A stretch of 64,000 nt of DNA. Origin: Candidatus Magasanikiibacteriota bacterium. Its GTDB lineage: Bacteria; Patescibacteriota; Patescibacteriia; Magasanikbacterales; UBA922. How positions within the stretch are numbered: the stretch's first letter is position 1; the number at the start of each line of letters is the position of its first letter. The stretch is taken from NCBI GenBank assembly GCA_041665025.1, contig JBAYJP010000004.1, positions 26,311 through 90,310 of the forward strand, given 5' to 3'. The position numbers and the translations under genes are program-made. Below are positions 6,474 to 60,290 of the stretch, in pieces. The notes beneath the pieces were generated by a model. It saw only the letters and a list, made by a program, of their open reading frames with translations. It searched no databases and was not told the origin of the DNA.

Positions 6474-6554
6474 TAATATGTACGAAATACGAAAATACGA
6501 AAGTAAATATGTAATTTTTGTAATTTTGTAATTTTCGTATTTCGTACATAAATT

Positions 6555-7643
6555 ATGCCAAAAAAGAAAAATAAAAAATCACAATCTCACGGTTTACCAG
6601 AAGTATTTCTTGAAAGACTAACCCGTATTGTTGGTCTTTCTTATTTTGAACAGATTAAAAGAACCTTTGTTGAGCGTCCGACTACATTTCGCGTGAATAC
6701 GATAAAAGCAAACCGACAAGAAATCTTGGAAATTCTACAACAGCAGGGGTTTAAAGTACGGCAAGTTCAGTGGTATAAGGACGCTTTTATTTTACTCAAT
6801 AAGACGAAACGCGAATTGACGGATTTGGATATGTATGACGAGGGGAAGATATATATTCAAAGTTTGGCAAGCATGATCCCACCATTAGTCTTGGATCCAC
6901 AACCAGGGGATAGGGTGTTAGATTTGACAGCCGCGCCAGGGAGCAAGACTTCACAGATAGCAGCAATGATGCGTAAACAAGGCGAGCTTGTGGCAAATGA
7001 TAAAAATAAAATACGCTTTTTTAAGTTGAAGCATAATGTTGAAGCGCTGGGTGTGGCGGAATTGGCTCTCCCCCTACAAGGGGGAGCAAGAGGGGGTCTG
7101 GATTACAAAAAAACGTCTAGTGATATTATAGACCCCTCCCAACCTCTCCTTGTAGGGGAGGAGTCATGGAAGTTCAATCTTCGCATGGAAGACGGTTATC
7201 ATCTGTGCAAAGAGTACCCCGAATATTTTGATAAAATAATCCTTGATGCACCATGCAGTGCCGAGACGCGTTTTGTCGAGACAAATATAAAGACATATGG
7301 ATATTGGAAAGAGAATAAAATAAAGGAAATGGTCTTTGCCCAACGCGGTTTGTTATTTGCCGCATGGAGTGCGCTCAAGCCTGGGGGGACGCTTGTGTAT
7401 TCTACGTGCACCTTTGCTCCAGAAGAAAACGAATTACAGATAACTAGATTTTTGGAGAAAATTACTAATGTTGAAATATGTAATATCGATGTCATAGATA
7501 TTAAAAAATTATTTATCGTTAAAGAATGGAAAGGGAGGGACATCGATAAAAACGTACAAAAAAAAGCGCTTCGTATTATGCCATCGAACGAGATTGAAGG
7601 GTTTTTTGTGGTTAAATTAAAGAAACTCGTAATTCATAATTAG
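6555..7643 (+). CDS. NOL1/NOP2/Sun-family rRNA m5C methyltransferase (RsmB/RsmF-like)
   Basis: SAM motif DLTAAPGSKTSQ and the catalytic motifs DAPCSAE and STCT. Carries an in-frame GC-rich palindromic insert at 7066-7163. Confidence 0.8.
   Translation: MPKKKNKKSQSHGLPEVFLERLTRIVGLSYFEQIKRTFVERPTTFRVNTIKANRQEILEILQQQGFKVRQVQWYKDAFILLNKTKRELTDLDMYDEGKIYIQSLASMIPPLVLDPQPGDRVLDLTAAPGSKTSQIAAMMRKQGELVANDKNKIRFFKLKHNVEALGVAELALPLQGGARGGLDYKKTSSDIIDPSQPLLVGEESWKFNLRMEDGYHLCKEYPEYFDKIILDAPCSAETRFVETNIKTYGYWKENKIKEMVFAQRGLLFAAWSALKPGGTLVYSTCTFAPEENELQITRFLEKITNVEICNIDVIDIKKLFIVKEWKGRDIDKNVQKKALRIMPSNEIEGFFVVKLKKLVIHN
7066..7163. repeat. GC-rich palindromic element in frame inside the rsmB-like CDS
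   Basis: ctccccctacaagggggag and ccttgtaggggagg inverted pairs plus a gggggtct...agacccc hairpin. Local GC is far above the surrounding CDS. Confidence 0.5.
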
Positions 7644-10800: not shown

Positions 10801-12914
10801 CTGAATATGTAGCAAGAAGGAAAGAATGGGCAAGAAAAACTGCAGATATTGAAGCGAAAGCCCGTTCGACAAAAGGTCTCGGAGGTACTATTGCGCAGTA
10901 TCAGCTCGATACGGTAACCGCGCGTAAAAAAGCTACACAAGCTCAGCTCCAACAGCATGCGCTCGGTCTGAATAGCGTGAGCGAATTGTTTGAGAGAATG
11001 GAAATAGAAGAGCAATTCGCGGCCGCAGCTGAAAAAATAAAAGAAGGAATAAAAAACAGTCATTTGACTGAAATATTTAAAAAGGGGACTAAAGAATTAG
11101 AAAAAGCTGCTGAAGCAATAGCAAAAGGCGCTGCGTCAGTGAAAGATGCGTACAAAAATATTGGCGCGGGGGCGCAAGCTATAAAAGCAGAAGTCGAATC
11201 AGAGTATCTTACAAGTCTGAGCCAGACACAGCGTCAGCGCACAAAAGATGAAGCAGACGACCAGTATTCTTTGCAAAGATTTGGGTTTGGTACACCGTCG
11301 ACCGCGTTTAAAAATCTTATTAAAAAAAGAATGGATGAGACGTTTACTGGCGTAGAGCGTGAACAGGCGGTTGTTATGGCAATGGGCTCTCTCTCGCATC
11401 TGATGTTGGCACAGGAAGGTGGCGAAGAATTAGACTTGGATCATCAGGCGCAGATGATGGCAAATGTCCAATATTTGGTCAAACAAGCATGGTCAGATGA
11501 TCTATTGGCTCATATTGTCAATAAGGTTAACGACAAGGATAAATTTACTGGAAAAGAAAAGCAAGAAGCCGAAATGTTAGGTAGAGTATTCGTAGATAAA
11601 TTACACTGGGGAACACGGACAGGTGAAGGCGAGAATCAAAAAGTAGTTATAGACAAAAATATTTCTGACAATCGGCGTACCAATGATTTGCACCGTTTGA
11701 CCGCTTATGCTGGAGATACAGATTTATTGCAGTCAGAAAATGCCGTTTTGCATCATAAAAAACAGATGGAAGCAGAGCGAGGTGATAAGGTCGGCTATAT
11801 GGAAGCTGTCAAGGATCTAGCTGAAAAGATTACGGAAGCTCGAAACATTGCTGGGGGTGCAGACGTTGACGTGGAGAAGTTGGGTGAGAGTTTAGGTTTG
11901 AAAGGAATAGCAACTGGCGGAGAAGAACTAAAAGCATTTATGAAGCGATTTGCGAGTGAAGCCAGAGGTGCTGCTGATGCGGTAAGTGAATTTGAAAAGG
12001 ACATTCGTAGTCATTCCGAAGCAAATGAGCTCATGGCTGATTACAAAAATTTGGCACTGCAAGTTGGCCACTTGGATGATGGTGGCCACACGTATTATGA
12101 TATGGGTGACAAGATAGCACGCGGTCATTTGGCTGACGATGCCATGGAGTTCGTTTTGTCTGATTGGCGTAAATTGAACAGTAGAGAGAGAGCACGTCGT
12201 CTCAAATCGCATTCAATTGGTCAAATGGATGAGGATTCAGGGACAATATACAAGGATGAACGCAACATAAAGGCAATACAGGAGACAATGCAAGGTTTAA
12301 CGCGACTTGTATTTTCAGATATTGATGGACGAACTAAAGATCACACGGCCGGAGGAGAAGCGGGAGAAACTTTTGAAACAAATGATGCAACAGGAGCTGC
12401 TATGATCGGAGCACAAAGCGGTACTATGTTTCAAAAAACATTCAAAGACGCGGAAAAAGCCAGAGCAAAACTCAAGATTTTTTTTGAATCACTGACAGAT
12501 GATGCAGAAAAGCTGCTTTTATCTAATTTTGGAATGACCTCAGCACAAATGAAAGCAAAAGCTGAAACAGATGAAATATTTGCTCGTCGTCTCGCGACAT
12601 TGACTCAAGTTGCTGATAATTATGCAGTAGATGCGATCGGCAGTTCTGATTTTTTGGCTGCTAGTATTGGAAGCAAGTCGGGTGTTGAATATGATCTAGC
12701 CGTCCAAGGTAAATTTAATGTTGATCTAGGAGATCAAGATTTGAGAGTTGAAGTAAAAAATGAAGATAAGTTGCTTGATTGGATATCCATGTTGAGAACA
12801 AACAGAACAACAGTTGATTTTGAAAGACAAAGAAAAGCGATTGAGAACAAATTTAAATTAAACAAGAGACCAAAACCAGATTCAAAAAAGGAAGATGACA
12901 ATGAACCACGATAA
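7878..12914 (+). CDS. VirB6/TrbL-like polytopic membrane protein with ~1300-aa charged coiled-coil extension
   Basis: The first ~330 aa have 6 or more hydrophobic helices in a TrbL/VirB6-like arrangement. The remainder is a K/E/A-rich low-complexity coiled coil. The gene heads a cluster with PrgI-like and VirB4 genes. Confidence 0.5.
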   Translation: MRPYFLKSVAQIKARLSSILRVQRNRYFAGIFFVFCITIGLLFVSPSKAVEGVSWLVEGASWMILGIAQICIALTVFFLRFFITLASYNNYIDTAVVQLGWTMVRDVANMFFVVALLVIAFATILGLEQYEWKKGLAKLIMMALFINFSNLIAQLIIDVAHVFTITFLNAVSATAGGNLINMFQLQNITSMVLSSDTSQLQFGTTPEGASTAVFIGVVVAALFAIMAAVAMGSYVVVMAIRVVVLWALIILSPLAYLLAAMPKGEKYAQQWWSEFSKHVLVAPVMVFFLWLAFATLGSGQILQEIQNNDPAVVRLQQTNEAASISITKVSTWENMANYLIAFFFLMMGIKMTQETGAQGAGLVGGAANFGKKVATIATGYAAGRWLAGKAGKGAVAGLKGAAYYMPGVGGRRIETALKTAKANIKAGWYRKGAGITGKGVMAQSAQAKKAQELEEIETKLKDESLDKGERAKLEERKTQLTEGHALSDKERQEAANEAEKKGIKQGKSEKEIASMKRDAVMEAELDAMGTKGLHEVVGQESSGKKHGVIGWLARRDVSRMKHLKKSEGQAETLEKLAFKHMGSEAGGLIFNKKSAQINAQDRWERGLLKAEERRSKAKDTEFETKGEEAGLHESRIKFMPSGSTDWKNQEKMTMADQIASHDRGAGAAQKRIESVLKTADIKIDVSASIAAKGLDVEQKGVNGLLLSDEQVAMEEKKAKAEEDERIIVKEVNDKYEPQRDGLKKEMRDAVDTDPAVEAAQKALDAYREEGGKRDKYLETEEGKAEQKEREDSIDAKLKANKELAEAIRKDPNTNFSDPALEALGQKLKNAQEARKTALVDGNTKEATKQTDNINKIEEDIKKAKEDRATFEKEEQKEQDRLSSRRAMKTDEEEQLVKDVSTKRKAVMEDEQGKYKLAKAEHDKLGKSMEAEIDDKARAPREVIRTERQKLSDYLNGRDKDKENPDGKKKKWEESPEYVARRKEWARKTADIEAKARSTKGLGGTIAQYQLDTVTARKKATQAQLQQHALGLNSVSELFERMEIEEQFAAAAEKIKEGIKNSHLTEIFKKGTKELEKAAEAIAKGAASVKDAYKNIGAGAQAIKAEVESEYLTSLSQTQRQRTKDEADDQYSLQRFGFGTPSTAFKNLIKKRMDETFTGVEREQAVVMAMGSLSHLMLAQEGGEELDLDHQAQMMANVQYLVKQAWSDDLLAHIVNKVNDKDKFTGKEKQEAEMLGRVFVDKLHWGTRTGEGENQKVVIDKNISDNRRTNDLHRLTAYAGDTDLLQSENAVLHHKKQMEAERGDKVGYMEAVKDLAEKITEARNIAGGADVDVEKLGESLGLKGIATGGEELKAFMKRFASEARGAADAVSEFEKDIRSHSEANELMADYKNLALQVGHLDDGGHTYYDMGDKIARGHLADDAMEFVLSDWRKLNSRERARRLKSHSIGQMDEDSGTIYKDERNIKAIQETMQGLTRLVFSDIDGRTKDHTAGGEAGETFETNDATGAAMIGAQSGTMFQKTFKDAEKARAKLKIFFESLTDDAEKLLLSNFGMTSAQMKAKAETDEIFARRLATLTQVADNYAVDAIGSSDFLAASIGSKSGVEYDLAVQGKFNVDLGDQDLRVEVKNEDKLLDWISMLRTNRTTVDFERQRKAIENKFKLNKRPKPDSKKEDDNEPR

Positions 12915-14480: not shown

Positions 14481-15707
14481 ATGTCAGTGCCAACATTCAT
14501 GGTAAAAAAACAAGATGGCACCCAAGTCAAAATGACATTGGACGAGTTTAAGGTATACCAACAGACACTAAAGCACTTGAGCACTAAAGCACTTGAGCAC
14601 AACGACCAACCTCTCAATCAGCCAGCTAAAGAAGTTGCAAAGAGTGATGACGTGCCAAAAGGAAAAATGGCTATAGTTGAAAAAAAGGAAATAAAACAAA
14701 AAAAAGAAGAATTGCCCATGGTATTGGGGACAGAAGCAGTGACAACGGTGAGTCCGGTGAAAGATGTATTTGTTGACGAAGCTAAATATGTACGAAATTC
14801 GAAAACTGCGAAAAATACGAAAGTAAACGAGAAAAATATTGTTGAAAAAGAGGTTAAAAAGCCTATTTCATTAGCTAAAGATGATTTTGTATCGTTATTA
14901 GAAGAAGATGAGGAAGATGTGCCTAAACCGCAAGGACAAGCAGTAACGATGAGTTCGTATGATGATGTGGTGAAAAAAATTATCACTGAAAGCGGAGTGC
15001 GTGTGCCCGCAGATCTGAAAGAGAGGCTTTCGTCGCTTATTTTGTCCTATATCAAACAAGTTCGTGATGAATACCAATTTATTGACTATGCAGATCGACC
15101 GGCACAAAGGGGAGGTGTGGGTTTGTCAAAAGATGATGCTTCAAAATTATTATCAATGATTAAAAAAACCAATACTCAGCCTGCTAAGCGTAGTTTAGAG
15201 ATTGTTACGGATTCTATTGTTACTAAACCCGCACAGAAAAGTTTGAATGTTATTACGGATTCCACCTCGGTTAGATCTATTGAACGAAGTCAAAAGATTA
15301 TTACGGATTCCGCTATTGATAAACCAATTGATATAGTACAGCCACGCAACGTGGTTCATGATATTGTCTCCATACCGCCTGAACAAAAAACAGTGGGACC
15401 AGAAGGAGAAATGAGTACGTTTGGATTATCAGATTTTCGTAGATTGGCCCGTGATCCTGCAAAAGCCCGCGACATGCTTTTTTCAAAGATTCAGGGGTGG
15501 AAAGCCGAGTCTTTTTTACTCTATATGAAAGCAGCACAGGCCTGGCACAAGAGTCCTCTCTATAGAGAATATCTTGACTTGACGGAGAATTCACTTAAAG
15601 AAAATACGCAAATTTCACAATTGTTGATCGAGCAAACAAAGGCTGGGGGGATGACATTTGGAGAATATAAAGAAATTGTTGAGTTGAATAGACAACTTAG
15701 TAACTAA
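14481..15707 (+). CDS. hypothetical protein with internal ~50-60-bp tandem repeats
   Basis: The ATG at 14481 follows the upstream stop. Three imperfect repeats (..ITDS..) span 15190-15330. Confidence 0.5.
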   Translation: MSVPTFMVKKQDGTQVKMTLDEFKVYQQTLKHLSTKALEHNDQPLNQPAKEVAKSDDVPKGKMAIVEKKEIKQKKEELPMVLGTEAVTTVSPVKDVFVDEAKYVRNSKTAKNTKVNEKNIVEKEVKKPISLAKDDFVSLLEEDEEDVPKPQGQAVTMSSYDDVVKKIITESGVRVPADLKERLSSLILSYIKQVRDEYQFIDYADRPAQRGGVGLSKDDASKLLSMIKKTNTQPAKRSLEIVTDSIVTKPAQKSLNVITDSTSVRSIERSQKIITDSAIDKPIDIVQPRNVVHDIVSIPPEQKTVGPEGEMSTFGLSDFRRLARDPAKARDMLFSKIQGWKAESFLLYMKAAQAWHKSPLYREYLDLTENSLKENTQISQLLIEQTKAGGMTFGEYKEIVELNRQLSN

Positions 15708-15720
15708 AAAATATTAAAAA

Positions 15721-15796
15721 TGTACGAAATTCGGAAACTACGAAATATTCGAAATACATTTTTTTCGTACCTTTCGCAGCTTTCGTATTTCGTACA
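15721..15796. repeat. TACGAAA-heptamer palindromic element (copy A)
   Basis: tgtacgaaat(t/a)cg(g)aaactacgaaatattcgaaatacatttttttcgtacctttcgcagctttcgtatttcgtaca. Near-identical to the copies at 16235 and 17488. Confidence 0.8.
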
Positions 15797-15799
15797 TGA

Positions 15800-16231
15800 A
15801 TGTATATGCAACAGTTCGTCATTCCACAATTTATCGATGTCGAAGACAAGATTTTTGGGCCAATCACCACACGTCAGTTTTTGATTTTGCTTGTGGCCGG
15901 CATTTGTATATTTTTATCCTACCGTTTTGCTGATCTTGCGTTGTTTATTGTCGTACTTGCCGTCATGGGGGGCTTGGCATTAGTGTTCGCATTTGTTAAA
16001 ATTAACGGACAGACGTTTCATTATTTTTTGTTAAATATTATTCAGACCTTGCGCAAGCCATCTTTGAGGATTTGGAGAAAATTTTATCATAAAAAAGAAT
16101 TAGAATTTTTGAGAAAACAAGTAACTGAAGAAAAAATTATTGAAGAAAAGGCAAAGCCCGTGCACAGAGAGAGAATTAGAGATTTGGCTCTGCTTGTTAA
16201 TACTGGTGGTTTTTATAAGCCAGAAGAATAA
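15800..16231 (+). CDS. PrgI-family (VirB3-like) conjugal-transfer membrane protein
   Basis: N-terminus VIPQFIDVEDKIFGPITTRQFLILL followed by two TM helices, typical of PrgI/VirB3-like proteins that sit upstream of VirB4. Confidence 0.55.
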   Translation: MYMQQFVIPQFIDVEDKIFGPITTRQFLILLVAGICIFLSYRFADLALFIVVLAVMGGLALVFAFVKINGQTFHYFLLNIIQTLRKPSLRIWRKFYHKKELEFLRKQVTEEKIIEEKAKPVHRERIRDLALLVNTGGFYKPEE

Positions 16232-16234
16232 TTA

Positions 16235-16310
16235 TGTACGAAATACGAAAACTACGAAATATTCGAAATACATTTTTTTCGTACCTTTCGCAGCTTTCGT
16301 ATTTCGTACA
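16235..16310. repeat. TACGAAA-heptamer palindromic element (copy B)
   Basis: More than 90% identical to copy A. Confidence 0.8.
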
Positions 16311-16322
16311 TAATATTATGTT

Positions 16323-16739
16323 ATGGACCAAGGAGGTAAACAATATACGCTAAGAAGAAATGATTTGATATATCCAGAATTGAGTTTTAAGATTAGTGGT
16401 GTTCTATTTAATGTGTTTAAACAGTTGGGCGGAGGTCATGAAGAAAAATACTACGAGAAAGCAGTGTCTATCGGTTTTACTAAAGGACAGATAAAGTTTA
16501 ACCGCCAATATTATGTTCCTCTAACGTATGAGGGTGAACATATTGGTAAATATTACTTAGATTTTTTAGTAGAGGGTAAGATAATATTGGAATTAAAAAG
16601 AGGAAAATATTTAAATGCACGTCTTATAGATCAGGTAACTAAATATTTGGAAACTTTAAAGTTACAATTGGCAATTATTGCATGTTTTACGAGCAATGGT
16701 GTAATAATAAAACGTATTATAAATCATAACATGCTGTAA
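16323..16739 (+). CDS. GxxExxY-family protein (PD-(D/E)xK-like)
   Basis: GGGHEEKYYEKAV matches the G-x-x-E-x-x-Y signature, and the length is ~140 aa. Flanked on both sides by TACGAAA elements. Confidence 0.6.
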   Translation: MDQGGKQYTLRRNDLIYPELSFKISGVLFNVFKQLGGGHEEKYYEKAVSIGFTKGQIKFNRQYYVPLTYEGEHIGKYYLDFLVEGKIILELKRGKYLNARLIDQVTKYLETLKLQLAIIACFTSNGVIIKRIINHNML

Positions 16740-16744
16740 TACAC

Positions 16745-16777
16745 TTTCGAAATTTCGTAGCTTTCGAATTTCGTACA
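16745..16777. repeat. TACGAAA-family half element (right arm only)
   Basis: tttcgaaatttcgtagctttcgaatttcgtaca. Confidence 0.5.
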
Positions 16778-16782
16778 TATAT

Positions 16783-17469
16783 ATGGATGATAAAGTCAAA
16801 CAAAAAAAGAGTAATTCCAAGCCGAGCACACAGGCCCATCTTCCTATTGCAGAAATACGGGAAGGTGTGGTGGTCTTGAAAGATGGAACATTGCGCGCGG
16901 TTCTCATGACCTCGAGTATTAATTTTGCGTTGAAATCAGAAGATGAACAGAATGCTCTTATTTCTTCGTATGTAGGATTTCTCAATTCTCTCGATTTTCC
17001 TGTGCAAATTGTCATCCAGTCGCGCCGATTGCAGATTAAGCCATATTTGGAGAAGCTTTCCACGCTCGAACGAGAGCAGAAAAACGAATTACTGCGTGTG
17101 CAAATTGCCGATTATCGTGCATTTATTGAGGAGTTGGTAGACATTGGAAAAATTATGACAAAAAAATATCTCGTAGTAGTCCCATATGATCCTATTTCAA
17201 ATAGCAAAAAGAGTTTTTGGTCTCGATTTAAAGAGGTAATAAAACCGGCTATTTCGTTGAGGCTTAAAAATGATCGTTTTCAAAAACGAAGGCAAGATTT
17301 GGATATGAGAGTCCGGCAAGTCGAAGGCGGCCTTTCATCTATGGGACTCCAAGTGGTCCAACTTGATACACAAGCGCTCATTGAATTGTATTACAGCACC
17401 TACAATCCCGATATTTCTTTTGCAGAGACCCTAGGAGATATTGATAAACAACAAGTAGAAACCATTTAA
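16783..17469 (+). CDS. VirB4/TraC-family N-terminal segment (first part of a split VirB4)
   Basis: LPIAEIREGVVVLKDGTLRAVL...FPVQIVIQSRR resembles the start of VirB4-type proteins. It is in the same frame (mod 3) as the next ORF, and the two are separated by a 102-bp element. Confidence 0.5.
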   Translation: MDDKVKQKKSNSKPSTQAHLPIAEIREGVVVLKDGTLRAVLMTSSINFALKSEDEQNALISSYVGFLNSLDFPVQIVIQSRRLQIKPYLEKLSTLEREQKNELLRVQIADYRAFIEELVDIGKIMTKKYLVVVPYDPISNSKKSFWSRFKEVIKPAISLRLKNDRFQKRRQDLDMRVRQVEGGLSSMGLQVVQLDTQALIELYYSTYNPDISFAETLGDIDKQQVETI

Positions 17470-17470
17470 T

Positions 17471-17565
17471 TATGTACGAATTAATTATGTACGAAATACG
17501 AAAACTACGAAATATCCGAAATACATTTTTTTCGTACCTTTCGCAGCTTTCGTATTTCGAACATA
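17471..17565. repeat. TACGAAA-heptamer palindromic element (copy C) separating the two VirB4 ORFs
   Basis: Near-identical to copies A and B, with a short 5' partial duplication atgtacgaattaatt. Confidence 0.8.
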
Positions 17566-17571
17566 TCTATT

Positions 17572-19452
17572 ATGCCGTTCAAACCCGTTAGTTTTGGAAA
17601 AAATCCAAAGTTCGCTCCCATATCTGCTCCAGAAGATGAACAAAAGAAAAAAGTTCAGCAGGAAATGGTGTCGTTGAAAGAAGAGCGTTTGTACCGCGAG
17701 GGCACTGTTGCCATTCGCGATCTTATTGCACCTTCTGCGTTTAGAGTTGAGTCAAGCTTTCTTCAGTTGGGTACGACTATGCTTCGGACTATTTTTATCG
17801 TGAGTTACCCTCGCTATATTTCTGTCGGATGGAGTGCGCCTATACTCAATTTGAATTTGACCATGGATATTAGTATGTTCTTTTATCCGATTAATTCTGC
17901 GATTATTTTGAAACAGCTCAAGAAAAAAGTAGGTGCATTGCAAGCGCAATTATCCGCGGATGCAGAAAAAGGAGCGCCCCGTGATCCAGTACGCGAAACG
18001 GCGTTGCAAGATATTGAACAATTGCGCGATGATTTGACTCAAGGCACTGAACATTTTTTTCAATTTGCGTTTTATATCACATTATATTCCACGAATCTTG
18101 AAGAATTGGAACGTATTACCGATGATATCCATAATATTTTTGGTTCAAAATTGATTCACAGCAAACATGTGTTGTATCAGGCAGAACAGGGATTTAATTC
18201 GACGGTACCGATGAGCGTCGATGAGCTTGTTATTGCGTTTAATATGAATTCATCTCCTATTGCAGCGTCATTTCCTTTTATATCTTCTGAGCTGACTTCC
18301 GACGATGGTATCTTGTATGGTGTGAATCGCCACAATAACAGTCTTATTTTGTTTGACCGTTTTTCTTTGCAAAATGCAAATATGGTCGTATTTGCAACCT
18401 CTGGTGCAGGAAAATCATATGCGGTTAAGTTGGAAATTTTGCGCAGTCTCATGATGGGAGTGGATATCATTGTCATCGACCCTGAAATGGAGTACGTGCA
18501 TCTTTGCGAGGCAGTAGGGGGTACGTATATCAGTATTTCTCTTGCTTCGGAAAGTAAAGTCAATCCGTTTGATTTGCCTCGACCTGTTGGGCAACAAGTT
18601 TCAACTGAAGATATTATCCGGAGTGCAGTTATTACACTCAAAGGGTTGTTGCGTATTATGTTTGGCACTATTACTGCCCAAGAGGATTCTATTTTGGATA
18701 GAGCATTGCTTGAAACATATGCCAAAAAAGATATTACTGCCCAAAGCGATTTGTCTACGGTTGAGCCGCCAATTATGCAAGATTTGCTTGATGTACTTGA
18801 AGGTATGGAAGGCGCAGAAACACTTGTGTTAAAGTTGAAAAAATATACGGAAGGAACATTTGCAGGACTTTTCAATTCACCGACCAATGTAAACATGAGC
18901 AATCAGCTTGTCATATTTAGTGTGCGTGATTTGGAAGATGAATTGCGTCCCATGGCTATTTATACATTGGTCAATTATATTTGGAATATTGTACGTTCGG
19001 AGCGCAAAAAGCGTTTGCTCATGATTGATGAGGCGTGGTGGCTCATGATGCATGAAGATAGCGCAAAATTTATGTACGCGCTTGTGAAACGGTGTCGCAA
19101 ATATTATTTGGGTGTTACGACGATTACCCAAGATGTGAATGATTTCTTGCGTTCTCAATATGGGCAAGCGATTGTAAACAACTCTGCGTTGCAAATGCTC
19201 TTGCGCCAGTCGCCGTCTGCGGTGGACGTGATCCAAAAAACATTCATGCTGACTGAAGGAGAGAAATATTTGCTTTTGGAAAGTCCGGTAGGGCAGGGTA
19301 TATTTTTTGCAGGCAACAAACATGCGGCCATTCAGATTGTTGCTTCATATACCGAAGACCAATTGGTTACATCAAATCCCCAGCAATTGCTTGAAATCGA
19401 GCGTGCTAAAAAAGAATTTGAACAGCAGATGACGGGACGAGACCAAAGTTGA
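17572..19452 (+). CDS. VirB4/TrbE/CagE-family T4SS ATPase (C-terminal major part)
   Basis: CagE_TrbE_VirB-type region (FIVSYPRYISVGW), Walker A FATSGAGKSY, Walker B LLMIDEAWWLM. Confidence 0.85.
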   Translation: MPFKPVSFGKNPKFAPISAPEDEQKKKVQQEMVSLKEERLYREGTVAIRDLIAPSAFRVESSFLQLGTTMLRTIFIVSYPRYISVGWSAPILNLNLTMDISMFFYPINSAIILKQLKKKVGALQAQLSADAEKGAPRDPVRETALQDIEQLRDDLTQGTEHFFQFAFYITLYSTNLEELERITDDIHNIFGSKLIHSKHVLYQAEQGFNSTVPMSVDELVIAFNMNSSPIAASFPFISSELTSDDGILYGVNRHNNSLILFDRFSLQNANMVVFATSGAGKSYAVKLEILRSLMMGVDIIVIDPEMEYVHLCEAVGGTYISISLASESKVNPFDLPRPVGQQVSTEDIIRSAVITLKGLLRIMFGTITAQEDSILDRALLETYAKKDITAQSDLSTVEPPIMQDLLDVLEGMEGAETLVLKLKKYTEGTFAGLFNSPTNVNMSNQLVIFSVRDLEDELRPMAIYTLVNYIWNIVRSERKKRLLMIDEAWWLMMHEDSAKFMYALVKRCRKYYLGVTTITQDVNDFLRSQYGQAIVNNSALQMLLRQSPSAVDVIQKTFMLTEGEKYLLLESPVGQGIFFAGNKHAAIQIVASYTEDQLVTSNPQQLLEIERAKKEFEQQMTGRDQS

Positions 19453-26339: not shown

Positions 26340-28376
26340 ATGGACCTTAAAGGTTTTTTTTCTAATCACATAAAACCAATACTTTTTTCTTGGCGTCGTG
26401 TTGGTGTTTCTGTTCTTGTCGTTGCTGGGCTTGTGGGTATTTTTTTATTGGCGGGTTTTGGGTATGTGAAAGCATATGAAGGAAAAGTGCTACCCGGGAT
26501 TTTTATTGGGGATATATCAATCGGGGGAATGGACAAAGAGGAGCTGGGTAATTTTATCCGCCAGATGAATACTAAACTTTTGGATGAAGGTATTTTTGTT
26601 TCATTCCAGTCTGATGGTCAGAAAAAAGAATTCACTATCAACCCAGTCACCGTGGGGGATCAGACTGCCGAAGAATTGATTACATTAGACGTAGATAAAG
26701 AAATATCATACCTTTTGCAGTATGGACGCGGAGGTGGTTGGTTTGACACAGTCGTAAATACAGTCTTGACGCGCGTGCGTCAACCTCATCTCACATTACA
26801 AACAGTACAAATACAGAAAAATTATATTCTAGATCAGATTCGTGGATCTCTTGAGGGGTACATTGTTGAGCCTGTTGATTCAAATATACGTATAAAGACG
26901 CTCGCACCTCTTACGTATGAAGTGACATCGTCTACTCCGGGAAATACGTTTGATTATGAACAGGTATTAAGTACGGTGAAACGCTCATGGTCAGAATTAA
27001 CTTCTCCACAAGTAGCTATTACTTCATACACAAAAAATCCAACCATTGTTGAATCTGATGTGCAAGGAATGAGTAACCGATTACAAGCGGTTTTTACACC
27101 GGGCCGGCTTGATATACTTTTTACTGATCCATACACTACACGTGAATATACGTGGTTTGTTTCTCCAGAAGAAATGGCTTCGTGGATTGAAGTTGAGCGC
27201 GTATCTGATGGTTCACTCGTGTTTGGCCTCAACTATGAGCGTACCGTAGCTTTTTTGAAAAAAGATATTAGTGACGTCGTGAATGTGGAAGCTGAAGATG
27301 CAAAATTTAACGTGGCTTCAAATGGTAAGGTGGTAGAATTCCAAGGTTCGCGTCCTGGGGTTACGGTTGACCTTGAAAAAACATATGCAGATATCAATCA
27401 AGCATTTATTGGGCGTACATTGCATGACGAAGGGGTAGTGAAGGCAATCACGCTCACTACCATGCAGGTCGAACCAAATATAAAGACAGGCGAGGTGAAT
27501 GACTTGGGAATTTCTGAAGTTCTTGGTTTTGGCCATTCCAAATTTCGTGGCAGTCCAGGGAATCGTATAAAAAATATTCGTCATGCGGCATTTGATAAAT
27601 TGAATGGACTTTTGATCAAACCTGGTCAAGAATTTTCTTTGATACAAGCTTTGCAACCTTTTACGGTAGAAGATGGATATTTGCCTGAGCTGGTCATAAA
27701 AGGGGATAGGATAGTGCCAGAATTGGGTGGGGGTTTGTGCCAAGTGGGTACGACCATGTTTCGTGCTGCTATGAACTCCGGCCTTGTTATCACTGAACGT
27801 AGAAATCATTCGTTGGTTGTCCCTTATTACAATGATTTATCCAATGGAAATCCGGGGACAGATGCGACGATTTACGAACCTCATCCGGACTTTCGATTTT
27901 TAAATGACACAGGTAAACACATCCTCATAACTTCAGAATTCAATACACAAACATCTGACTTGTATTTTTATTTTTGGGGTACAAACGATGGCAGGAAAGG
28001 ATATTATTCTGCTCCGCAAGTTTCAAGGTGGATTCCCGCTGGTGAACCTCGTATGATAGAGACTACAGAACTTCCTGTAGGGAAAAAAGAGTGTCAGGAA
28101 GTACATATGGGGGCAGAGGCTAGTTTTACCTACACACGTGAACTTGCGTCTGGAGAAAAAATACAAAAAGTCTTTGAAAGCTATTATCGTCCGCTTCCTC
28201 AAATTTGTTTGGTAGGCGTAGAAAAAGTGGCTGAGACTACATGTCCAGAAGGACAAGAATGTCCAACAACTGAAATCCCTTCAGACACACCAATTGGCGA
28301 ACAGGGTTTTGATCCAAATGTTGACTTGTGGGGGAGTAATCCTCCAGCTGAAGCTGGTACGAGTACGGTTAATTAG
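26340..28376 (+). CDS. VanW-family protein with N-terminal TM anchor
   Basis: VanW core GGGLCQVGTTMFRAAMNSGL and preceding G5-like beta region. Length 678 aa. Confidence 0.75.
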   Translation: MDLKGFFSNHIKPILFSWRRVGVSVLVVAGLVGIFLLAGFGYVKAYEGKVLPGIFIGDISIGGMDKEELGNFIRQMNTKLLDEGIFVSFQSDGQKKEFTINPVTVGDQTAEELITLDVDKEISYLLQYGRGGGWFDTVVNTVLTRVRQPHLTLQTVQIQKNYILDQIRGSLEGYIVEPVDSNIRIKTLAPLTYEVTSSTPGNTFDYEQVLSTVKRSWSELTSPQVAITSYTKNPTIVESDVQGMSNRLQAVFTPGRLDILFTDPYTTREYTWFVSPEEMASWIEVERVSDGSLVFGLNYERTVAFLKKDISDVVNVEAEDAKFNVASNGKVVEFQGSRPGVTVDLEKTYADINQAFIGRTLHDEGVVKAITLTTMQVEPNIKTGEVNDLGISEVLGFGHSKFRGSPGNRIKNIRHAAFDKLNGLLIKPGQEFSLIQALQPFTVEDGYLPELVIKGDRIVPELGGGLCQVGTTMFRAAMNSGLVITERRNHSLVVPYYNDLSNGNPGTDATIYEPHPDFRFLNDTGKHILITSEFNTQTSDLYFYFWGTNDGRKGYYSAPQVSRWIPAGEPRMIETTELPVGKKECQEVHMGAEASFTYTRELASGEKIQKVFESYYRPLPQICLVGVEKVAETTCPEGQECPTTEIPSDTPIGEQGFDPNVDLWGSNPPAEAGTSTVN

Positions 28377-28430
28377 TTTGTATTTTTTAAGTTGTTTTTT
28401 GTAAGATTTAATCCGTATAGATTATTTTTT

Positions 28431-28521
28431 TCTTCGGCAGCGCAACTCACCCCGTCCCGAATACTCGGGACACCCCTCTCTTACTAAGAGAGGGGTCGGG
28501 GGTGAGTTGTGTGGAAGAAAA
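28431..28521. repeat. GC-rich nested-hairpin element (family with 60175-60290)
   Basis: Outer stem gcaactcacccc/ggggtgagttg encloses hairpins gtcccgaatactcgggac and cccctctcttactaagagagggg. Confidence 0.7.
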
Positions 28522-28902
28522 AATAGACTTGTATTTTTATCGAACAGGAAAATTTCGTAATTGGGACTATTGAACTTGTCGATTATATATTAAAATTGGC
28601 TAATTTAAGCCAATTTTTTGTTTTTCCCACAGGTGGTGTCTTGACAATAATGCTTGGGTATGTTATTATATGCTGTTATTTAACAGTAGACGAAAGTAAA
28701 AGTGATATAGAGGAATATGTGTTTTGTTGTCCTGTACAACGTAAACACATACTCTCCTGTATCGGTTTGTTAGTTTGTTGAATGTGGTTGTACAGTAATA
28801 GTAAAGAACACAATTCAATATACATCTCCCCAAAGAGACGAGGATTCAGAATCGTACATATTTAGAAGAAGTTTTGTGAAATAAATATGTATAATCCTGT
28901 AT

Positions 28903-29040
28903 CCACGACAAGCATGGGGGTGTGTTGTAGGGTAGCACAGGCTACGGCTCGTCTTTTCCTCTAACACACCTTCTTGGGTACGGGTAAGGTTCATCCTTAC
29001 ATGCAAATAGCCCTCCGGATAATCTCCGGAGGGTTTTGTT
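28903..29040 (+). ncRNA. candidate small RNA (extended -10 promoter to intrinsic terminator)
   Basis: TGtATAAT at 28888-28895. The ~135-nt interval has nested helices (ggtgtgtt...aacacacc, gtaagg..ccttac) and ends at the terminator at 29011-29040. No plausible ORF. Confidence 0.3.
29011..29040 (+). terminator. rho-independent terminator
   Basis: ccctccgga-taatc-tccggaggg followed by ttttgtt. Confidence 0.65.
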
Positions 29041-29295
29041 ATTGACAAAATAAGATATATGTGATATAGTGATCCGTTTATTATACACGCAATAGCAACA
29101 TTGTTGTGGTTCGTGTTGTAAACAACGTCCATTACAATTCACCACACTTTTTGTGAATAGAGTATTTGGGATTATTGAAAAATATTTTCAAATACTCTAT
29201 TCACGTGTCGCCCGAAGTTATCGGGTGAGTGATACTCGAGAAGACAGGAGAGTTCCAATACCGAGCAGAAGGGAACGACGAGCAAGCGTCTCGCC

Positions 29296-29664
29296 GTGGT
29301 TGTGCTGATCGGAGTGAACTTATGGCTCGCGGTCGCGTTGTATACGCCGTCGGCCATGGAGTCGATCCAGATCGAGCAGTGCGACATCACGGCAGGGTTC
29401 CTGCCGGGGAAGGAGGTGTACAGCTGCGATCTGTTCGACTACGATGCGAATTTCCTCGAGGCGATTGTGATCGAGGAAGATGAACGTTTCCAATGGCACT
29501 GCACCCTAGGCGTCGAGTATATCAGATGTATCGACGCGACGGGCCATGCGGTCTGGCCCGAGAAGAGCACGGCCATGTGCCCGTTCACGGGCAGCATGCC
29601 GAGCTGTCCCGAGGCCCTCGGGGGTGCTGCCGAGCCGATGGTGGTCGTGCTGCCGAGCCAGTGA
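29296..29664 (+). CDS. small secreted Cys-rich protein encoded in a high-GC island (likely horizontally acquired)
   Basis: Strong G/C third-position bias in this frame only. GTG start, hydrophobic N-terminus VVLIGVNLWLAVALY, 8 Cys, and a hairpin terminator ggtgacg..cgtcacc right after the stop. The overlapping ORFs in other frames are GC-induced artefacts. Confidence 0.5.
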   Translation: MVVLIGVNLWLAVALYTPSAMESIQIEQCDITAGFLPGKEVYSCDLFDYDANFLEAIVIEEDERFQWHCTLGVEYIRCIDATGHAVWPEKSTAMCPFTGSMPSCPEALGGAAEPMVVVLPSQ

Positions 29665-29896
29665 CGAGGAGGGGTGTGGTGATTCGGACCCGACCAAGTC
29701 GGGGCCGTGGACGCCATCGGTGACGCCGTCGTGAGACGATCGTCACCGGCCCTTCTTTTGTGTATCAATGTTGATATATAGAAGAAGAGAAAATATTTTT
29801 ATAAAAAAGACTGGCGTTAGACGTCAGTCTTTTGTTTCTATAAACATGTGGTAGGAAAGATTCCTCCCCGCCTTGGGCGGATCGGAATGAACTTAT

Positions 29897-39843: not shown

Positions 39844-40287
39844 ATGTCATTATATGACACGCTGTTACAATCTCAGCAAGAGGCACGAAAAAATCATGAG
39901 CAAGAGCGGCTTTCAATATTGCAAGTCGCTCTTGCTGCAATTAAAAATGAAAAGATAAACAAACAAAAAGATTTATCCGATGCAGATGTTGTGTCTGTTA
40001 TTGGTAAACAGATAAAACAACTCCGTGATGCGCTTGTCGATTTTGAAAAAGCGCAACGCAGTGATCTCGTCGACAAAACAAAAAAGGAAATCGAATTATT
40101 GTCAGTGTACGTTCCGCGTCAATTGTCCGAAGATGAGATACGCCCTATTGCCAAAGAAGTTATTTCTGCATTGCCACCCGGAAGCACTCCTAATTTTGGT
40201 AGTGTGATGGGTATGGTGATGCAAAAAGTTAAGGGTCAGGCAGACGGCGCGACCGTACAAAAAATTGTTAAAGAGTTACTCGTATAA
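39844..40287 (+). CDS. yqeY: GatB/YqeY-domain protein
   Basis: About 147 aa with LQVALAAIKN...MGMVMQKVKGQADG pattern. Usual neighbour of rpsU. Confidence 0.8.
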   Translation: MSLYDTLLQSQQEARKNHEQERLSILQVALAAIKNEKINKQKDLSDADVVSVIGKQIKQLRDALVDFEKAQRSDLVDKTKKEIELLSVYVPRQLSEDEIRPIAKEVISALPPGSTPNFGSVMGMVMQKVKGQADGATVQKIVKELLV

Positions 40288-40289
40288 TA

Positions 40290-40357
40290 TGTACGAAATT
40301 CGAAAGCTACGAAACATACGAAATTTCGGACCTTTCGCAACTTTCGAATTTCGTACA
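40290..40357. repeat. TACGAAA-family palindromic element (divergent copy)
   Basis: tgtacgaaattcgaaagctacgaaacatacgaaatttcggacctttcgcaactttcgaatttcgtaca. Confidence 0.7.
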
Positions 40358-40387
40358 TAATTTAATTCAGAGTCTAAGGTTTTTCCC

Positions 40388-42628: not shown

Positions 42629-45600
42629 ATGAAACAACGCGCACGAACATGGTTTTTTGCTGGGTTATTGACCGCAGTATTTGTTGTTGGTTTTTTCGTG
42701 TTTTTTAATCCCGTGTTTGGCCAGGATACGCTTGGGTTGGATGTTGTGGAAAATGAAGGAGATATCGCGCTTGGTTCAGGAGATTTGCGAGTTACCATAG
42801 TTAGAATCATAAATATTGCGTTGGGTTTACTAGGTATTGTAGCGCTTGGCATTGTCCTGTATGGAGGATTTGTTTGGATGACTGCGGGAGGCAATGAAGA
42901 AAAGGTTGCGACTGCGCGTAAAATTTTAGTAAATGGCACCATTGGGCTTGTCATTATTTTATCTGCATGGACTATTACGTGGTTTGTGTTGAGTAAATTA
43001 ATTGAAGCCACTGGTGGCGGGGGAGGCACAACAGGAGGAGATCGTTGTACGTGTGCAGAACCTCCTGAGAGTGAATGTAGGAAAACAATTGAATGTCGAA
43101 ATTTTTGTACCAGATTTCCTTCGCAGTGCTGTAGCACAGATCATTTTATTGTAAAGAGCATCACACCAAGTACTCCGCAAACAGATCAAGAAATATTCAT
43201 GAATAATCCGGTCATTCGCGTGGTATTTAGTAGAGAAGTGGCAGGCAGTCCAAGCGATGCATTTAAAATTTACAAAAAAGAGGATGGTGGTGTAAACAGA
43301 GATGTCACACAAGATTTTAGTTTTAATTTTGATGGGAATGACACAATTGCTGAAGCCGAGTATGTACAAGGAACAGTGTGTGGCCAACACCAGGGGCATG
43401 ATGTCCATTGTTTGCTCGCAGGCGAATACGAAGTAAAAGTAGGTGATGTGCGTGACAAAGATGGCAACAAGCTTGAAGTCGATACTACATGTGGCAATTT
43501 TCCCAAAGATGCATTATTTAGGACAGGAGATGAAGCAGAACTTGCTATTGATACTCAAGCGCCAAATTTGTCTCAAGTTACCATAGATGGCGGAATTATA
43601 CCAAACGTGCGTTTGGTACAGGGCAGGACATATCCGATAGCGACCACTCTTTCAGATAATCGCGGAAATGCTTATGTACATTTGAATATATATAAAGAAG
43701 GAGACTCTGGAAATAAAATAAGGCAACATATCAATGGTCCTGCAGTATCTATTGGTTCTAGTCCCGCGTTTCCGTTCTTGTATGGTTTCAAAGTTCCTTA
43801 TACTTTAGAGGTTGGACAAACATATGTGGCTGAAGCAGTTGGTAATGACATAGACAATAACACGGTAACGAGCCAGCTCACCTTTAGAGTCATTCCTGTG
43901 AGCTGTGATAATGGCGAACTCGATCCTGGTGAAACGAGTCCTGATGTAGGCGGACCATGCGGAGGGGGAGATGGCGATGCGTGCCGTGTAGACACGGATT
44001 GTTCAAGTTGGCTTAAATGCTTAAATCCGAGTAATCAATTTTGTAGTGCTACAGATACAACATGCGTTTGCAGACCATGGCCATATATTACTGACGTAGA
44101 GTACATGAATGGAGCACAGGGTAATTGGATTACCATATTTGGGCGTAATTTTGGTTATGATCCAGGATTAGTAACATTTGACTATCCTGGTGGACAAAGA
44201 CAAACTGCACCGTTGGCGGAATGTCGGGCGAATGATGTGTGGGAAGACTCGTGGATTATTGCAGAAGTTCCAGAACAGATAACGCCTCAAGCGGCAAAAG
44301 ATCCAGCCCTTGAACTCAATGGAACGGACGCTTACGTGAGCGCACCTTTCAATATTTTTGATTGGGGATTTGAAGACGGTTATTTTTCCCTTGAGTTTTG
44401 GGTCAAACCACCCGCAAATGGAATAATACCTCATACATTACTCGCAGGTACGCAAGAGGGGGGTCAATTTGGAATATTTACTTCTTCAGATGATCTAGGA
44501 AGCGTAGAGGCATGGGTTAGAGATGCTGGGGGTGAATATAATATTGTAGTGGGAGATCCGGGACAACTACTGGGTAATGAGTGGAATCACGTCGTAATGA
44601 CTACTCAAGGTGTTGAAGGCGGAAGTGAAGTAAGATTATATATTAATCATAATTCTTTGGATAAAGAACCATTTACAAGCCAAGGTGCTGGTTTTGAATA
44701 TGTGGAAGCTGAGGAGTTTATTATTGGTTTTTTGGGAGATGATGACTATATGCGGGGCGCTATTGATGAAGTTGCCGTATATGCGGGCGTTTTGACCGAG
44801 GCACAAATAGTAGAACATTATAATGCAAAAAATATAGGAACCATTGAGTCTTATCGAACATTAGTAAACGCTATAGCTCCGCGCGCGTATTGGACATTTT
44901 CTAATTTCCAATCCGGGGATACACAGGTAACTGATATTTCTGGAAATGGATTTCATGGGACATATCATGGGGGTATAGAGGCAGTAAGCGGACCTTTTAT
45001 TTCCAATACGGCAACCGTTGACAAGCCTAGTATTTCTGTGACTACGGCTGGAACAGGATTTACGGATAACACGGACGATGATTTTGGTACTAGACTACCT
45101 TTATTTGAATATAATAGTATTCAGCGTCCGGGGTTATGTAGTGTCACGGTTCCGCGCGATATTGTTCATACATTAGCAGACGGCACTACAGTCACGACTA
45201 CTGCAGGATCGACCAAAGCTCCTCCTGATACGCCCATAGAAGCTGTGGGTAAAGGTTTTGGAAACGCGCGAGGATCTCTTAGTTTTGAAAGTACCAATGC
45301 CGCAGTTGATAGTTGGAGTGAAAATTTAATTTTGTCAGCTGTCCCTATCATGCAAGAGCAGAGGAAGGCAGTTGTGAGAGTTACTGCACCGTCTGGTCAA
45401 GTAAGTAATGGCATTCCTTTTTGGGTAAGTTCTCTTGCAGACATGTATCCTCCTATTATTGAAAGTATTAGCCCATCTTCAACTACAAAAGGAAGCTATA
45501 TTACTATAAAAGGTAAAAATTTTGGAAATAGCGGAATTGTTTATTTTAATACGGACGAAGATATTGGCTGTCCAGGCCAAGGTTGTTTTGCGAGTGCATC

Positions 45601-56661: not shown

Positions 56662-56665
56662 AATT

Positions 56666-56715
56666 ATGTACGAAATACGAAAACTGCGAAAGGTACGAAA
56701 AAATATATTTCGTGT
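56666..56715. repeat. TACGAAA-family element (partial)
   Basis: tgtacgaaatacgaaaactgcgaaaggtacgaaaaaatatatttcgtg. Confidence 0.5.
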
Positions 56716-60124: not shown

Positions 60125-60174
60125 TAAAAATTGAAAGTTGAGACATCATCCGAGAGGGTGGTGTTTTTTATTTT

Positions 60175-60290
60175 CCTTCGGCGATGCAACTCATCCCCTT
60201 ACCCCTTCTCTTAAAAAGAGAAGGGAATATATTTTCGTCGCCCCTCTCTTCGTAAGAGAGGGGGGGTGAGTTGCGTGGCCGAAAGGAGGG
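60175..60290. repeat. GC-rich nested-hairpin element (family with 28431-28521)
   Basis: Outer ttcggc/gccgaa and gcaactcatcccc/gggggtgagttgc stems enclose cttctcttaaaaagagaag and cccctctcttcgtaagagagggg hairpins. Confidence 0.7.

Follow-up and report, generated by a model that had tools for sequence, protein, structure and literature searches.

The window analysed here is a stretch of 64,000 nucleotides from a Candidatus Magasanikiibacteriota genome, with an overall GC content of 40%. Two of its intergenic spacers carry GC-rich nested palindromes. Copy 1 lies 55 nt past the stop codon (28376) of a VanW-domain gene (26340–28376), and copy 2 lies 51 nt past the ftsA stop codon (60124), between ftsA (58865–60124) and ftsZ (60510–61799). 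The arms GCAACTCAYCCC/GGGGTGAGTTG and an inner hairpin CCCCTCTCTT-N3-AAGAGAGGGG are common to the two elements. A preliminary description of this DNA had claimed an outer stem that encloses two inner hairpins in intergenic copies, each lying downstream of a gene's stop codon; arms, hairpins, distances and folding confirm this observation. The spacer that carries copy 2 is identical in an independent assembly (L002). The coordinates of both elements and of a third palindromic segment, located in frame within an rsmB-like gene, are collected in Table 1.

Table 1. Coordinates of the palindromic elements in the window, their parts and the features next to them
Feature	Positions	Strand	Remarks
Copy 1, entire nested palindrome with its outer-stem extension (T-run/A-run)	28426–28523		Three-way junction; RNA and DNA folding
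Copy 1, left arm GCAACTCACCCC	28442–28453	+	Paired-arm pattern search
Copy 1, right arm GGGGTGAGTTGT	28499–28510		
Copy 1, inner hairpin GTCCCGA-ATAC-TCGGGAC	28454–28471		Module varies by lineage; not pyrimidine/purine
Copy 1, inner hairpin ACCCCTCTCT-TACTA-AGAGAGGGGT	28472–28496		
Copy 1, BoxC/PIT-type triple block: Y=CCCCTCTCTT, R=AAGAGAGGGG, R'=GGGGGTGAGTTG (right arm)	28472–28510	+	10/11 triads fit the G.G / A.(A or T) code
Copy 2, entire nested palindrome, outermost stem CCTTCGGC/GCCGAAAGG	60175–60286		
Copy 2, arms	60186–60197 and 60263–60274		Same arms as copy 1 except T at 60193
Copy 2, inner hairpin CCCTTCTCTT-AAA-AAGAGAAGGG	60203–60225		Pyrimidine/purine
Copy 2, inner hairpin CCCCTCTCTT-CGT-AAGAGAGGGG	60241–60263		Pyrimidine/purine
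Copy 2, left half, triple block CCCTTCTCTT/AAGAGAAGGG/GGGGATGAGTTG	60186–60225	-	10/10 triads fit the code
Copy 2, right half, triple block CCCCTCTCTT/AAGAGAGGGG/GGGGTGAGTTGC	60241–60274	+	9/9 triads fit the code
Copy 2, spacer between hairpins, 15 nt, AT-rich	60226–60240		Position of the DUF559 ORF in the nested cassettes L144 and L145
Terminator-like hairpin of ftsA with T-run, outside the element	60140–60174 (hairpin 60140–60167)	+	Directly upstream of copy 2
Terminator-like hairpin with T-run, after copy 1	28592–28617		
rsmB/rsmF-like methyltransferase coding sequence hosting the insertion	6555–7643	+	Pfam match split into two stretches
In-frame palindromic insertion in rsmB, about residues 170–204	7064–7165	+	Sister family
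rsmB insert, hairpins CTCCCCCT-ACA-AGGGGGAG and CCTCTCC-TTGTA-GGGGAGG; stem GAGGGGGTCT...AGACCCCTC	within 7064–7165		

Both copies are predicted to fold into a three-way junction. As RNA, copy 1 reaches -64.9 kcal/mol (z -11.6) and copy 2 reaches -70.6 kcal/mol (z -8.9), and in neither case did any of 200 shuffled sequences equal the value. As DNA, copy 1 folds with -39.5 kcal/mol (z -11.4), and the z value of copy 2 is -8.0. The paired-arm pattern occurs at these two sites only in the window, the number expected from shuffles being 0.00, and five of the nine GC-rich hairpins of at least 7 bp in the 64 kb lie within copy 1, copy 2 or rsmB.

A better description of the outer stem is that it represents the third block in each of two triple-block units of the BoxC/PIT type, inverted relative to each other. 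Such a unit comprises a pyrimidine arm (Y), a complementary purine arm (R) and a second purine block (R') mirroring the first (GGGGTGAG(TT) versus AAGAGAGGGG). In the window elements, the purine hairpin arm AAGAGAGGGG is mirrored by the adjoining terminal arm GGGGTGAGTT, so that G faces G, and A is faced by A or T; the third block runs antiparallel to the second, and the resulting G.G:C and A/T.A:T triads account for nearly all positions of the three half-units (Table 1). Throughout the family described below, every triad fits this code in 44 of 69 half-units, with a mean of 95.5%; shuffled controls gave a mean of 71.5% and 1.6% perfect units. The variable arm base covaries with the adjacent hairpin and not with the opposite arm: GGGATGAG is paired with ...GAAGGG in 8 of 11 cases and GGGGTGAG with ...GAGGG in 53 of 58, and after swapping this base only 3 of the 69 half-units are perfect. 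The T at 60193 fits the extra A:T pair of the adjoining copy 2 hairpin. This accounts for the T.G "mismatch" in copy 2's outer stem, where the arm base follows the adjacent hairpin rather than the opposite arm. An element is two inverted BoxC-type units or, in the manner of copy 1, a single unit plus a complementary arm. Covariation was read from these direct triad and arm–hairpin counts in place of RNAalifold, which picked an alternative pairing on a MAFFT alignment of 21 copies because the two hairpins of the element resemble each other.

BoxC, PIT and TM_ECO (Bergler 1992; Hoyne & Maher 2000; Holder et al. 2015, PMC4666352) are G/C-rich triple blocks of the form Y-R-R' that can fold into an intrastrand triplex of the class II purine motif. 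High conservation in more than 260 genomes is reported for them; the E. coli copies are always intergenic, and the class is reported to lack strand bias as well as promoter and terminator activity (PMC4666352). The window elements share with this class the consecutive Y-R-R' blocks in which R' mirrors R by the purine-motif code, the G/C-richness, the intergenic position in multiple copies, the absence of orientation bias and of a tie to one gene function, the variable loops beside conserved stems, and a very wide distribution. The third-block core GGGTGAG is also common to both (GGGTGAGGG in E. coli, GGGGTGAGTTG in the window elements). However, the blocks end in TT/AA/TT here and in CC/GG/GG in TM_ECO, and the TM_ECO consensus CCCTCNCCC-N3-6-GGGNGAGGG-N3-GGGNGAGGG has no match in the window, while the positive control beside E. 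coli ycjD was matched; the window elements are therefore a sequence variant of the BoxC class. They differ further in that their units form inverted pairs, or one unit with a complementary arm, and in possessing a long outer stem, a T-shaped or cloverleaf fold and often lineage-specific extra hairpins and flanks. In addition, the window copies sit in Patescibacteria. The element type is thus already known, and the window holds a new variant of it in a genome of the Candidate Phyla Radiation (CPR).

Species-representative genomes were scanned with the exact pattern CAACTCAYCCC-N(21–81)-GGGTGAGTTG, and the matches came to at least 117 stretches, spread over more than 10 phyla; by our own estimate under a uniform base model, about 30 matches would be expected by chance. 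Among the matches listed, the inner hairpin type CCCCTCTCT-loop-AGAGAGGGG, i.e., the pattern CCYCTCTCT/AGAGAGRGG, which was no part of the query, was found in 75 (strict) to 81 (looser) of 127 sites, the looser count taking in the window copies and one viral contig. The earlier suggestion of a mobile palindromic family proved largely right, and the family is a dispersed one. The family is present in Magasanikbacteria, other Patescibacteria, many Bacteroidota, Bacillota metagenome-assembled genomes (MAGs), Calditrichota, Aminicenantes, Ignavibacteria, Cloacimonadota, Marinimicrobia, Latescibacteria, Acidobacteria, Spirochaetales and Saganbacteria, and several MAGs carry at least 7–10 copies each. 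The flanks are lineage-specific and often lengthen the stem, such as GTGAACG/CGTTCAC in the Magasanikbacteria MAG JACPGR01. Several Bacteroidota MAGs have in common a unit of about 185 bp ending in AAGTAAT...ATTACTT, and units of about 170 bp stand in tandem in Marinoscillum.

The family behaves at the DNA level. Its copies are intergenic at 78 of the 81 sites, and 44 of the sites lie between co-directional genes, often tens of bases from both neighbors. For 37 copies between co-directional genes, the better-folding strand was the sense strand in 19 and the antisense strand in 18, so that a G.U-tolerant selection on RNA is not visible. One ribosomal-protein operon (L026) contains two copies in opposite orientations. 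A Pfam scan of the 150 open reading frames (ORFs) neighboring the copies gave 179 families from functionally unrelated genes. Among viral sequences, one real copy was present in 7 matches, which excludes a viral reservoir, and copy 2 had no BLAST match in the plasmid and phage collections of cultured organisms. A scan of JGI metagenomes with the window-specific left end CTTCGGCNNNGCAACTCAYCCC returned only chance matches in coding DNA, and hence this extension is not family-wide. A search of the loci for an autonomous element resembling an insertion sequence, with distant paired arms, yielded nothing convincing.

Copies are present or absent at orthologous sites. In a relative whose FtsA is 74% identical (L147), the ftsA–ftsZ spacer is 289 nt long, has 22% GC and is element-free; in a third relative, this spacer measures 232 nt. 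A different nested palindrome, ACCCCAACACCAAA...CTCCCGGTGTACATCGGGAG...TTTGGTGTGGGGT, occupies the same spacer position in L148 (FtsA 77% identical), right after the ftsA terminator (11369–11470). The ftsA–ftsZ spacer appears to be a recurrent landing place.

Among the 150 neighboring ORFs, the top Pfam family, with five members, is DUF559 (PF04480), a Vsr-like PD-(D/E)XK family. The repeats directly bracket ORFs of this family, about 118 aa in length, in Saprospiraceae (L019), Marinoscillum (L087), Ignavibacteria (L069), L063 and Cyclobacteriaceae (L093); in the Ignavibacteria locus L069, two such ORFs form a tandem array of the order element-ORF-element-ORF-element. Their stop or C-terminal codons fall in the arm, e.g., TAACTCA... 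or ...KLTLTLS*. The D...E.D residues of the PD-(D/E)XK type (ADF...E[IVL]DG) are conserved in seven aligned DUF559 ORFs, which are predicted nucleases. The nearest solved structure is 3HRL, and searches of PADLOC and PHROGs gave weak nuclease-domain similarities only.

A protein search with the Ignavibacteria DUF559 query gave 535 matches at E <= 1e-10; those listed, from Cloacimonadota, Chlamydiota, Margulisbacteria, Saganbacteria, Zixibacteria and Marinimicrobia, are mostly 55–75% identical to the query, and DUF559 proteins of different phyla share 60–75% identity. In a reciprocal test, loci were picked by protein similarity alone (Cloacimonadota L142, Simkaniaceae L144, Margulisbacteria L145 and Zixibacteria L146), and arms and hairpins were located on both sides of the gene in all four. 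In L145 (2950–3398) and L144 (2948–3428), the ORF is nested in a single element with the order armL-hairpinA-ORF-hairpinB-armR, and the nuclease ORF thereby interrupts a sequence that is intact elsewhere, in solo copies. The layout of copy 2 is that of these nested cassettes, with a 15-nt spacer in place of the ORF. The N- or C-terminal tails of DUF559 homologues are often translated repeat (ELTLNSFPKREG, QLTTHPQ..., LTPNPSLKK..., MTHPNPLLGREG), and signatures of this kind were seen in 21 of 51 tails in a library-wide sample.

The association extends to more distant DUF559 genes of cultured organisms. DUF559 of Synechocystis B12 has the arm CCTCACCCC and a hairpin upstream, and a hairpin and an arm within the 3' end of its ORF. 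Direct multi-hairpin repeats lie on both sides of the gene on plasmid pAQ6 of Picosynechococcus PCC 7002, near-identical inverted copies on both sides in Deinococcus proteolyticus, and repeats on both sides in N. gonorrhoeae (the 3HRL structural-genomics protein) and Sphingomonas. In total, all 15 small DUF559 loci inspected had GC-rich pyrimidine/purine palindromes at one or both ends. In E. coli, an exact TM_ECO lies after the DUF559 gene ycjD, a short way upstream of fabI. BoxC was reportedly first described by Bergler et al. in the envM (fabI) gene sequence. At least 80% of the 801-bp ycjD-BoxC-fabI stretch is kept in only 3346 of 5426 complete E. coli genomes; the locus is therefore structurally polymorphic. 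A duplicated remnant of the ycjD 3' end lies between ycjD and the exact TM_ECO in one E. coli locus (L157, 312–1060). The link between DUF559 and the repeats is found neither in those papers of the library searched that mention DUF559 nor in Holder et al. 2015 (PMC4666352). A DUF559 gene adjoins about 8 of the 81 sites, solo copies far outnumbering DUF559 genes, and within the Marinoscillum genome (L087/L089) the repeats flanking DUF559 are of the same subtype as the solo copies.

In another Magasanikbacterium (L139, 1665–2260), a DUF559 gene is located between a class II tRNA-synthetase gene (PF00152) and rsmB, immediately upstream of the latter, and is flanked by direct repeats of about 70 bp belonging to a third GC-rich palindrome (CTCCTCCCTACCTGCCGGCAGGCAGGCTTACTAAGGAGGAG...). 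At the same spot, L141 has a gene for a four-helix bundle of the 23S-rRNA-IVS type.

The palindromic segment within rsmB had been presented as a third element of similar style. It is indeed in frame, palindromic and similar in style, sharing some hairpin modules with copies 1 and 2; however, it is not a third copy, as it does not have the CAACTCAYCCC arms and its fold is far weaker (z -3.4 as RNA and -1.7 as DNA). The rsmB element is a member of a sister family. An alignment of 45 RsmB homologues also upheld the proposal that the segment is a genuine in-frame insertion, which is not universal: the distance from LKHNMEVLGV to LRMEHG is 21 aa in the shortest protein, 59 aa in the window and 95 aa at maximum. 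The window insertion is thus about 38 aa, and orthologues carry 0–75 extra residues at the same spot, with inserts that differ greatly in sequence. The DNA of the inserts in the window, L137 and L139 forms nested GC-rich palindromes of -60 to -68 kcal/mol, and the site is empty in L141. In L137 the insert takes a T shape made of an outer stem and two pyrimidine/purine hairpins; the hairpin CCTCCCCCT-ACG-AGGGGGAGG is common to it and the window insert, and this hairpin type is dispersed in the intergenic DNA of the L137 genome. In the AlphaFold model of the window RsmB, the mean predicted local distance difference test score (pLDDT) is 86.7, and residues 174–197 score below 50; hence, the insert is modeled as a disordered loop that links a helix to a strand within the methyltransferase fold. 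The motifs of the catalytic region are invariant in the alignment. A canonical two-hairpin copy also stands in frame in JACPGR01 (L017, 6458–6553), where it lies in a stop-free frame of 559 codons for a 556-aa multi-pass membrane protein and translates as ...NSPLAPLLPKRGETHGSVSPFSSVREGRGMS...

The best-supported reading is that the window copies belong to the BoxC/PIT class, as DNA repeats of a selfish or semi-selfish kind. More specifically, we consider it slightly better than an even bet (roughly 55%) that they are gene-less, miniature forms of a DUF559 nuclease cassette, comparable to repetitive extragenic palindromic (REP) sequences or MITEs (miniature transposable elements with inverted repeats), within a nuclease-driven repeat family, since a 15-nt spacer or a short unrelated hairpin stands where the ORF would be. 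We infer that the DUF559 nuclease recognizes the conserved blocks and cuts or nicks them, after which repair or recombination would copy or reshuffle the repeats in a homing-type or gene-conversion process. Copies would survive where they are harmless, i.e., in either orientation in AT-rich spacers that closely follow terminators and, now and then, in permissive loops of proteins. Conservation of the blocks across phyla is the expectation if a conserved nuclease reads them. A wider form of this idea, which we hold only tentatively, is that DUF559 proteins, E. coli YcjD and the 3HRL protein of N. gonorrhoeae among them, may be the missing partner enzymes of the BoxC/PIT/TM repeats in a pan-bacterial nuclease-repeat system.

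Several points weigh against the cassette reading. No DUF559 gene is present in the window or in about 16 kb of additional sequence from the same contig, nor in nine loci of the copy-rich MAG JACPGR01, and the roughly 80 kb covered of the present genome, out of a contig of 321 kb, contain only two copies. The arms were preset by the search pattern, and their invariance across phyla is thus partly by design. No target-site duplication was definable, the flanks being merely T-rich or AT-rich. To our knowledge, a PD-(D/E)XK nuclease acting alone is unable to insert DNA at new sites. In the vicinity of the E. coli motifs, no mobility genes were found by Holder et al. (PMC4666352). The dependence could also run in the reverse direction, with the nuclease gene homing into pre-existing repeats.

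This last possibility is part of the main rival, which seems unlikely to us but deserves serious weight. According to it, the repeats spread or persist by other means (a REP-associated tyrosine transposase (RAYT)-like enzyme, slippage or template switching at non-B DNA, or vertical decay), and DUF559 is a parasite similar to a homing endonuclease, with the solo copies being its uninvaded target sites and not derivatives. The nested layout of L144 and L145 looks like that of a homing endonuclease gene lodged in its own recognition site; the excess of solo copies over DUF559 genes agrees with this, and the window does encode a RAYT-like Y1 transposase with HUH and Tyr motifs (2021–2593). Yet the element does not flank that gene, the adjacent inverted pair is unrelated and occurs only once in the window, and a RAYT homologue is absent from about 145 element-bearing loci; given that there is neither flanking nor co-occurrence, RAYT was rejected as the mobilizer. 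The equal subtypes of flanking and solo repeats in Marinoscillum count against the parasite as well, though they fit either direction of dependence. Readings based on host function or on RNA are less well supported. It is improbable that the repeats are non-B DNA (an intrastrand triplex or a cruciform) maintained by the host to modulate replication, recombination or local genome plasticity, a role put forward for TM_ECO, the DUF559 adjacency being incidental or a matter of repair. The preserved triad code with its covariation would suit selection on the three-block geometry, Holder et al. 2015 (PMC4666352) demonstrated triplexes in vitro and increased rearrangement at TM loci, and the ycjD-BoxC-fabI stretch is kept only to the extent given above. 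However, in vivo footprinting did not support a stable triplex (PMC4666352), and the in-frame copies of the rsmB type and in the L017 membrane protein, together with presence or absence at orthologous sites, point to tolerated insertion rather than to a placed function. Moreover, a protein that reads mirror-symmetric purine tracts would yield the same covariation.

A structured RNA motif had also been considered at the outset. A strand-specific one is unlikely, as a search of Rfam 15 at gathering and permissive thresholds gave only generic miRNA-type hairpin matches far below threshold, the folding preference is evenly split between sense and antisense, and the flanking genes are unrelated. 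We regard it as highly improbable, too, that the copies are cis-acting RNA structures of 3' untranslated regions or operon spacers, such as mRNA stabilizers or RNase III sites, which would be free of orientation because they are nearly palindromic. The sense strand is the more stable one in both window copies (by 4.5 and 7.5 kcal/mol), these copies lie inside or after transcription units, and those of L026 lie between ribosomal-protein genes. Against this stand the lack of strand bias over 37 copies, the lack of a matching Rfam family and the existence of in-frame copies; the stems are conserved, whereas unpaired nucleotides are not and the loops vary freely. PIT elements, moreover, showed no promoter or terminator activity in earlier work quoted in PMC4666352. 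Readings as attC, adeno-associated virus inverted terminal repeat (AAV-ITR)-like, hammerhead or tRNA-like structures were dropped, as no conserved unpaired bases, R'/R'' cores or cassette context were seen. That the copies are unusually elaborate intrinsic terminators is scarcely credible, even though they are GC-rich hairpins placed 3' of stop codons. Indeed, the elements had been judged too elaborate for simple terminators from the beginning, and their anatomy effectively refutes this function: the GC-rich hairpin is followed directly by an A-run in copy 1 and by a purine-rich stretch in copy 2 instead of a T-run, ordinary T-run hairpins adjoin both copies (Table 1), and in L026 copies lie between genes of a single operon.

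As DNA repeats, the elements can be compared with other known systems. They resemble REP sequences, REP doublets forming hairpins (REPINs) and their RAYTs in being short GC-rich intergenic palindromes that outnumber one small enzyme gene, itself flanked by them, and in forming larger hairpins from inverted doublets. However, the partner is a Vsr-like PD-(D/E)XK nuclease here and an HUH Y1 transposase there. The REP tag GTAG/CGTC is absent, since the arms begin with CAACTCA, and GTAG/CTAC of the rsmB element lie in loops; nor is there a cognate RAYT, the RAYT-like gene of the window adjoining an unrelated inverted pair. Repeats and protein are conserved across phyla here, whereas REPIN-RAYT systems are described as being passed on for the most part vertically within lineages. 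Rickettsia palindromic elements are 100–150 bp long and genus-restricted. Unlike these, most copies here are intergenic, the in-frame rsmB element belonging to a sister family. MITEs are likewise small and ORF-less, with terminal inverted repeats and a longer ORF-carrying relative that has the same ends; for the present elements, however, that relative encodes a nuclease and not a transposase, and no clear target-site duplication could be made out. The Vsr-like homing endonucleases of the I-Bth0305I family (Dassa et al. 2009, PMC2677866) are grouped with DUF559 (PMC3424549). They share the nuclease-fold clade (VSR/DUF559/DUF2726) and the nature of small free-standing selfish nuclease genes, but they occur within group I introns or between split inteins, with additional regions for DNA binding, whereas DUF559 is here a minimal domain of about 118 aa bracketed by repeats.

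Other features of the window are reported for completeness. An ORF at 16323–16739 (region 16231–16786) encodes a 138-aa GxxExxY/PDDEXK_3 nuclease (PF13366, 1.2e-24; TIGR04256) inside a type IV secretion-like operon, between a PrgI-like gene (15800–16231) and TraC/VirB4-like ORFs (16783–17469 and 17572–19452). It is bracketed by an AT-rich palindrome family, with a full copy at 16231–16314 and a half copy at 16744–16786; this is the same design, a small nuclease gene between palindromic repeats, as that of the DUF559 loci. Further copies of the AT-rich palindrome are found at 6470–6557, 14780–14822, 15710–15805, 17477–17572, 40281–40366 and 56657–56710. The one at 17477–17572 lies exactly between the two VirB4/TraC-like ORFs and may split this gene or be read through. 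The RAYT-like protein matches Y1_Tnp with 1.6e-7 and REP_Tyr_transpos (NCBIfam) with 3.4e-12, the latter below the cutoff; its HUH motif is HFH and its Tyr lies in SSYIHLNP. The unique inverted pair just downstream of its gene (2645–2748) is 20 nt, CGTTTTGTGGCTTCGGGAAT/ATTCCCGAAACCACAAACG. The apparently non-coding, GC-richer segment 2780–2990, between the RAYT-like and methionine aminopeptidase genes, had no Rfam match at gathering level and may represent a structured RNA encoded on one strand or the other. A promoter close to consensus (TTGACA-17-TATTAT with TG, 28641–28669) is followed after about 340 nt by the terminator-like hairpin CCCTCCGGA-TAATC-TCCGGAGGG (29011–29033) and a T-run. No convincing ORF and no Rfam match were found between them (28641–29040), and this segment could be an unannotated RNA of about 360 nt. 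Between the VanW-domain gene and clpP, a GC island (29230–29760; up to 83% GC in 30-nt windows) that may be foreign DNA includes an ORF (29296–29664) for a Cys-rich protein of 122 aa with an N-terminal hydrophobic segment and without a Pfam match. Lastly, an ORF of 4201 aa (42629–55234), with a T4SS_pilin domain and many beta-propeller and Ig-like matches, is typical of CPR giant surface proteins, and its synteny is kept in L147 and L148.

For annotation, recurrent odd peptide tails and low-complexity inserts such as ...LTPxPSL..KRG.., PLQGG.. and PHPNPPLKGEG in CPR and other proteins can be explained as translated repeats, and the RsmB loop is flagged as an insertion hot-spot. The BoxC/PIT/TM elements have been known for about 30 years and are conserved in hundreds of genomes, still without a known function, origin or route of spread. 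Bracketing of nuclease genes by such repeats from E. coli to CPR bacteria makes this old question cheaply testable, e.g., with YcjD on BoxC DNA, and offers a candidate function for DUF559, which comprises at least 16,500 protein clusters and has no assigned function. If true, the system would be an analogue of RAYT-REPIN built on a Vsr-like nuclease that reads a triplex-capable, mirror-symmetric DNA motif. Such a nuclease would drive both the spread of the repeats and genome instability, reaching even the CPR genomes of about 1 Mb, their essential operons and the loops of their proteins.

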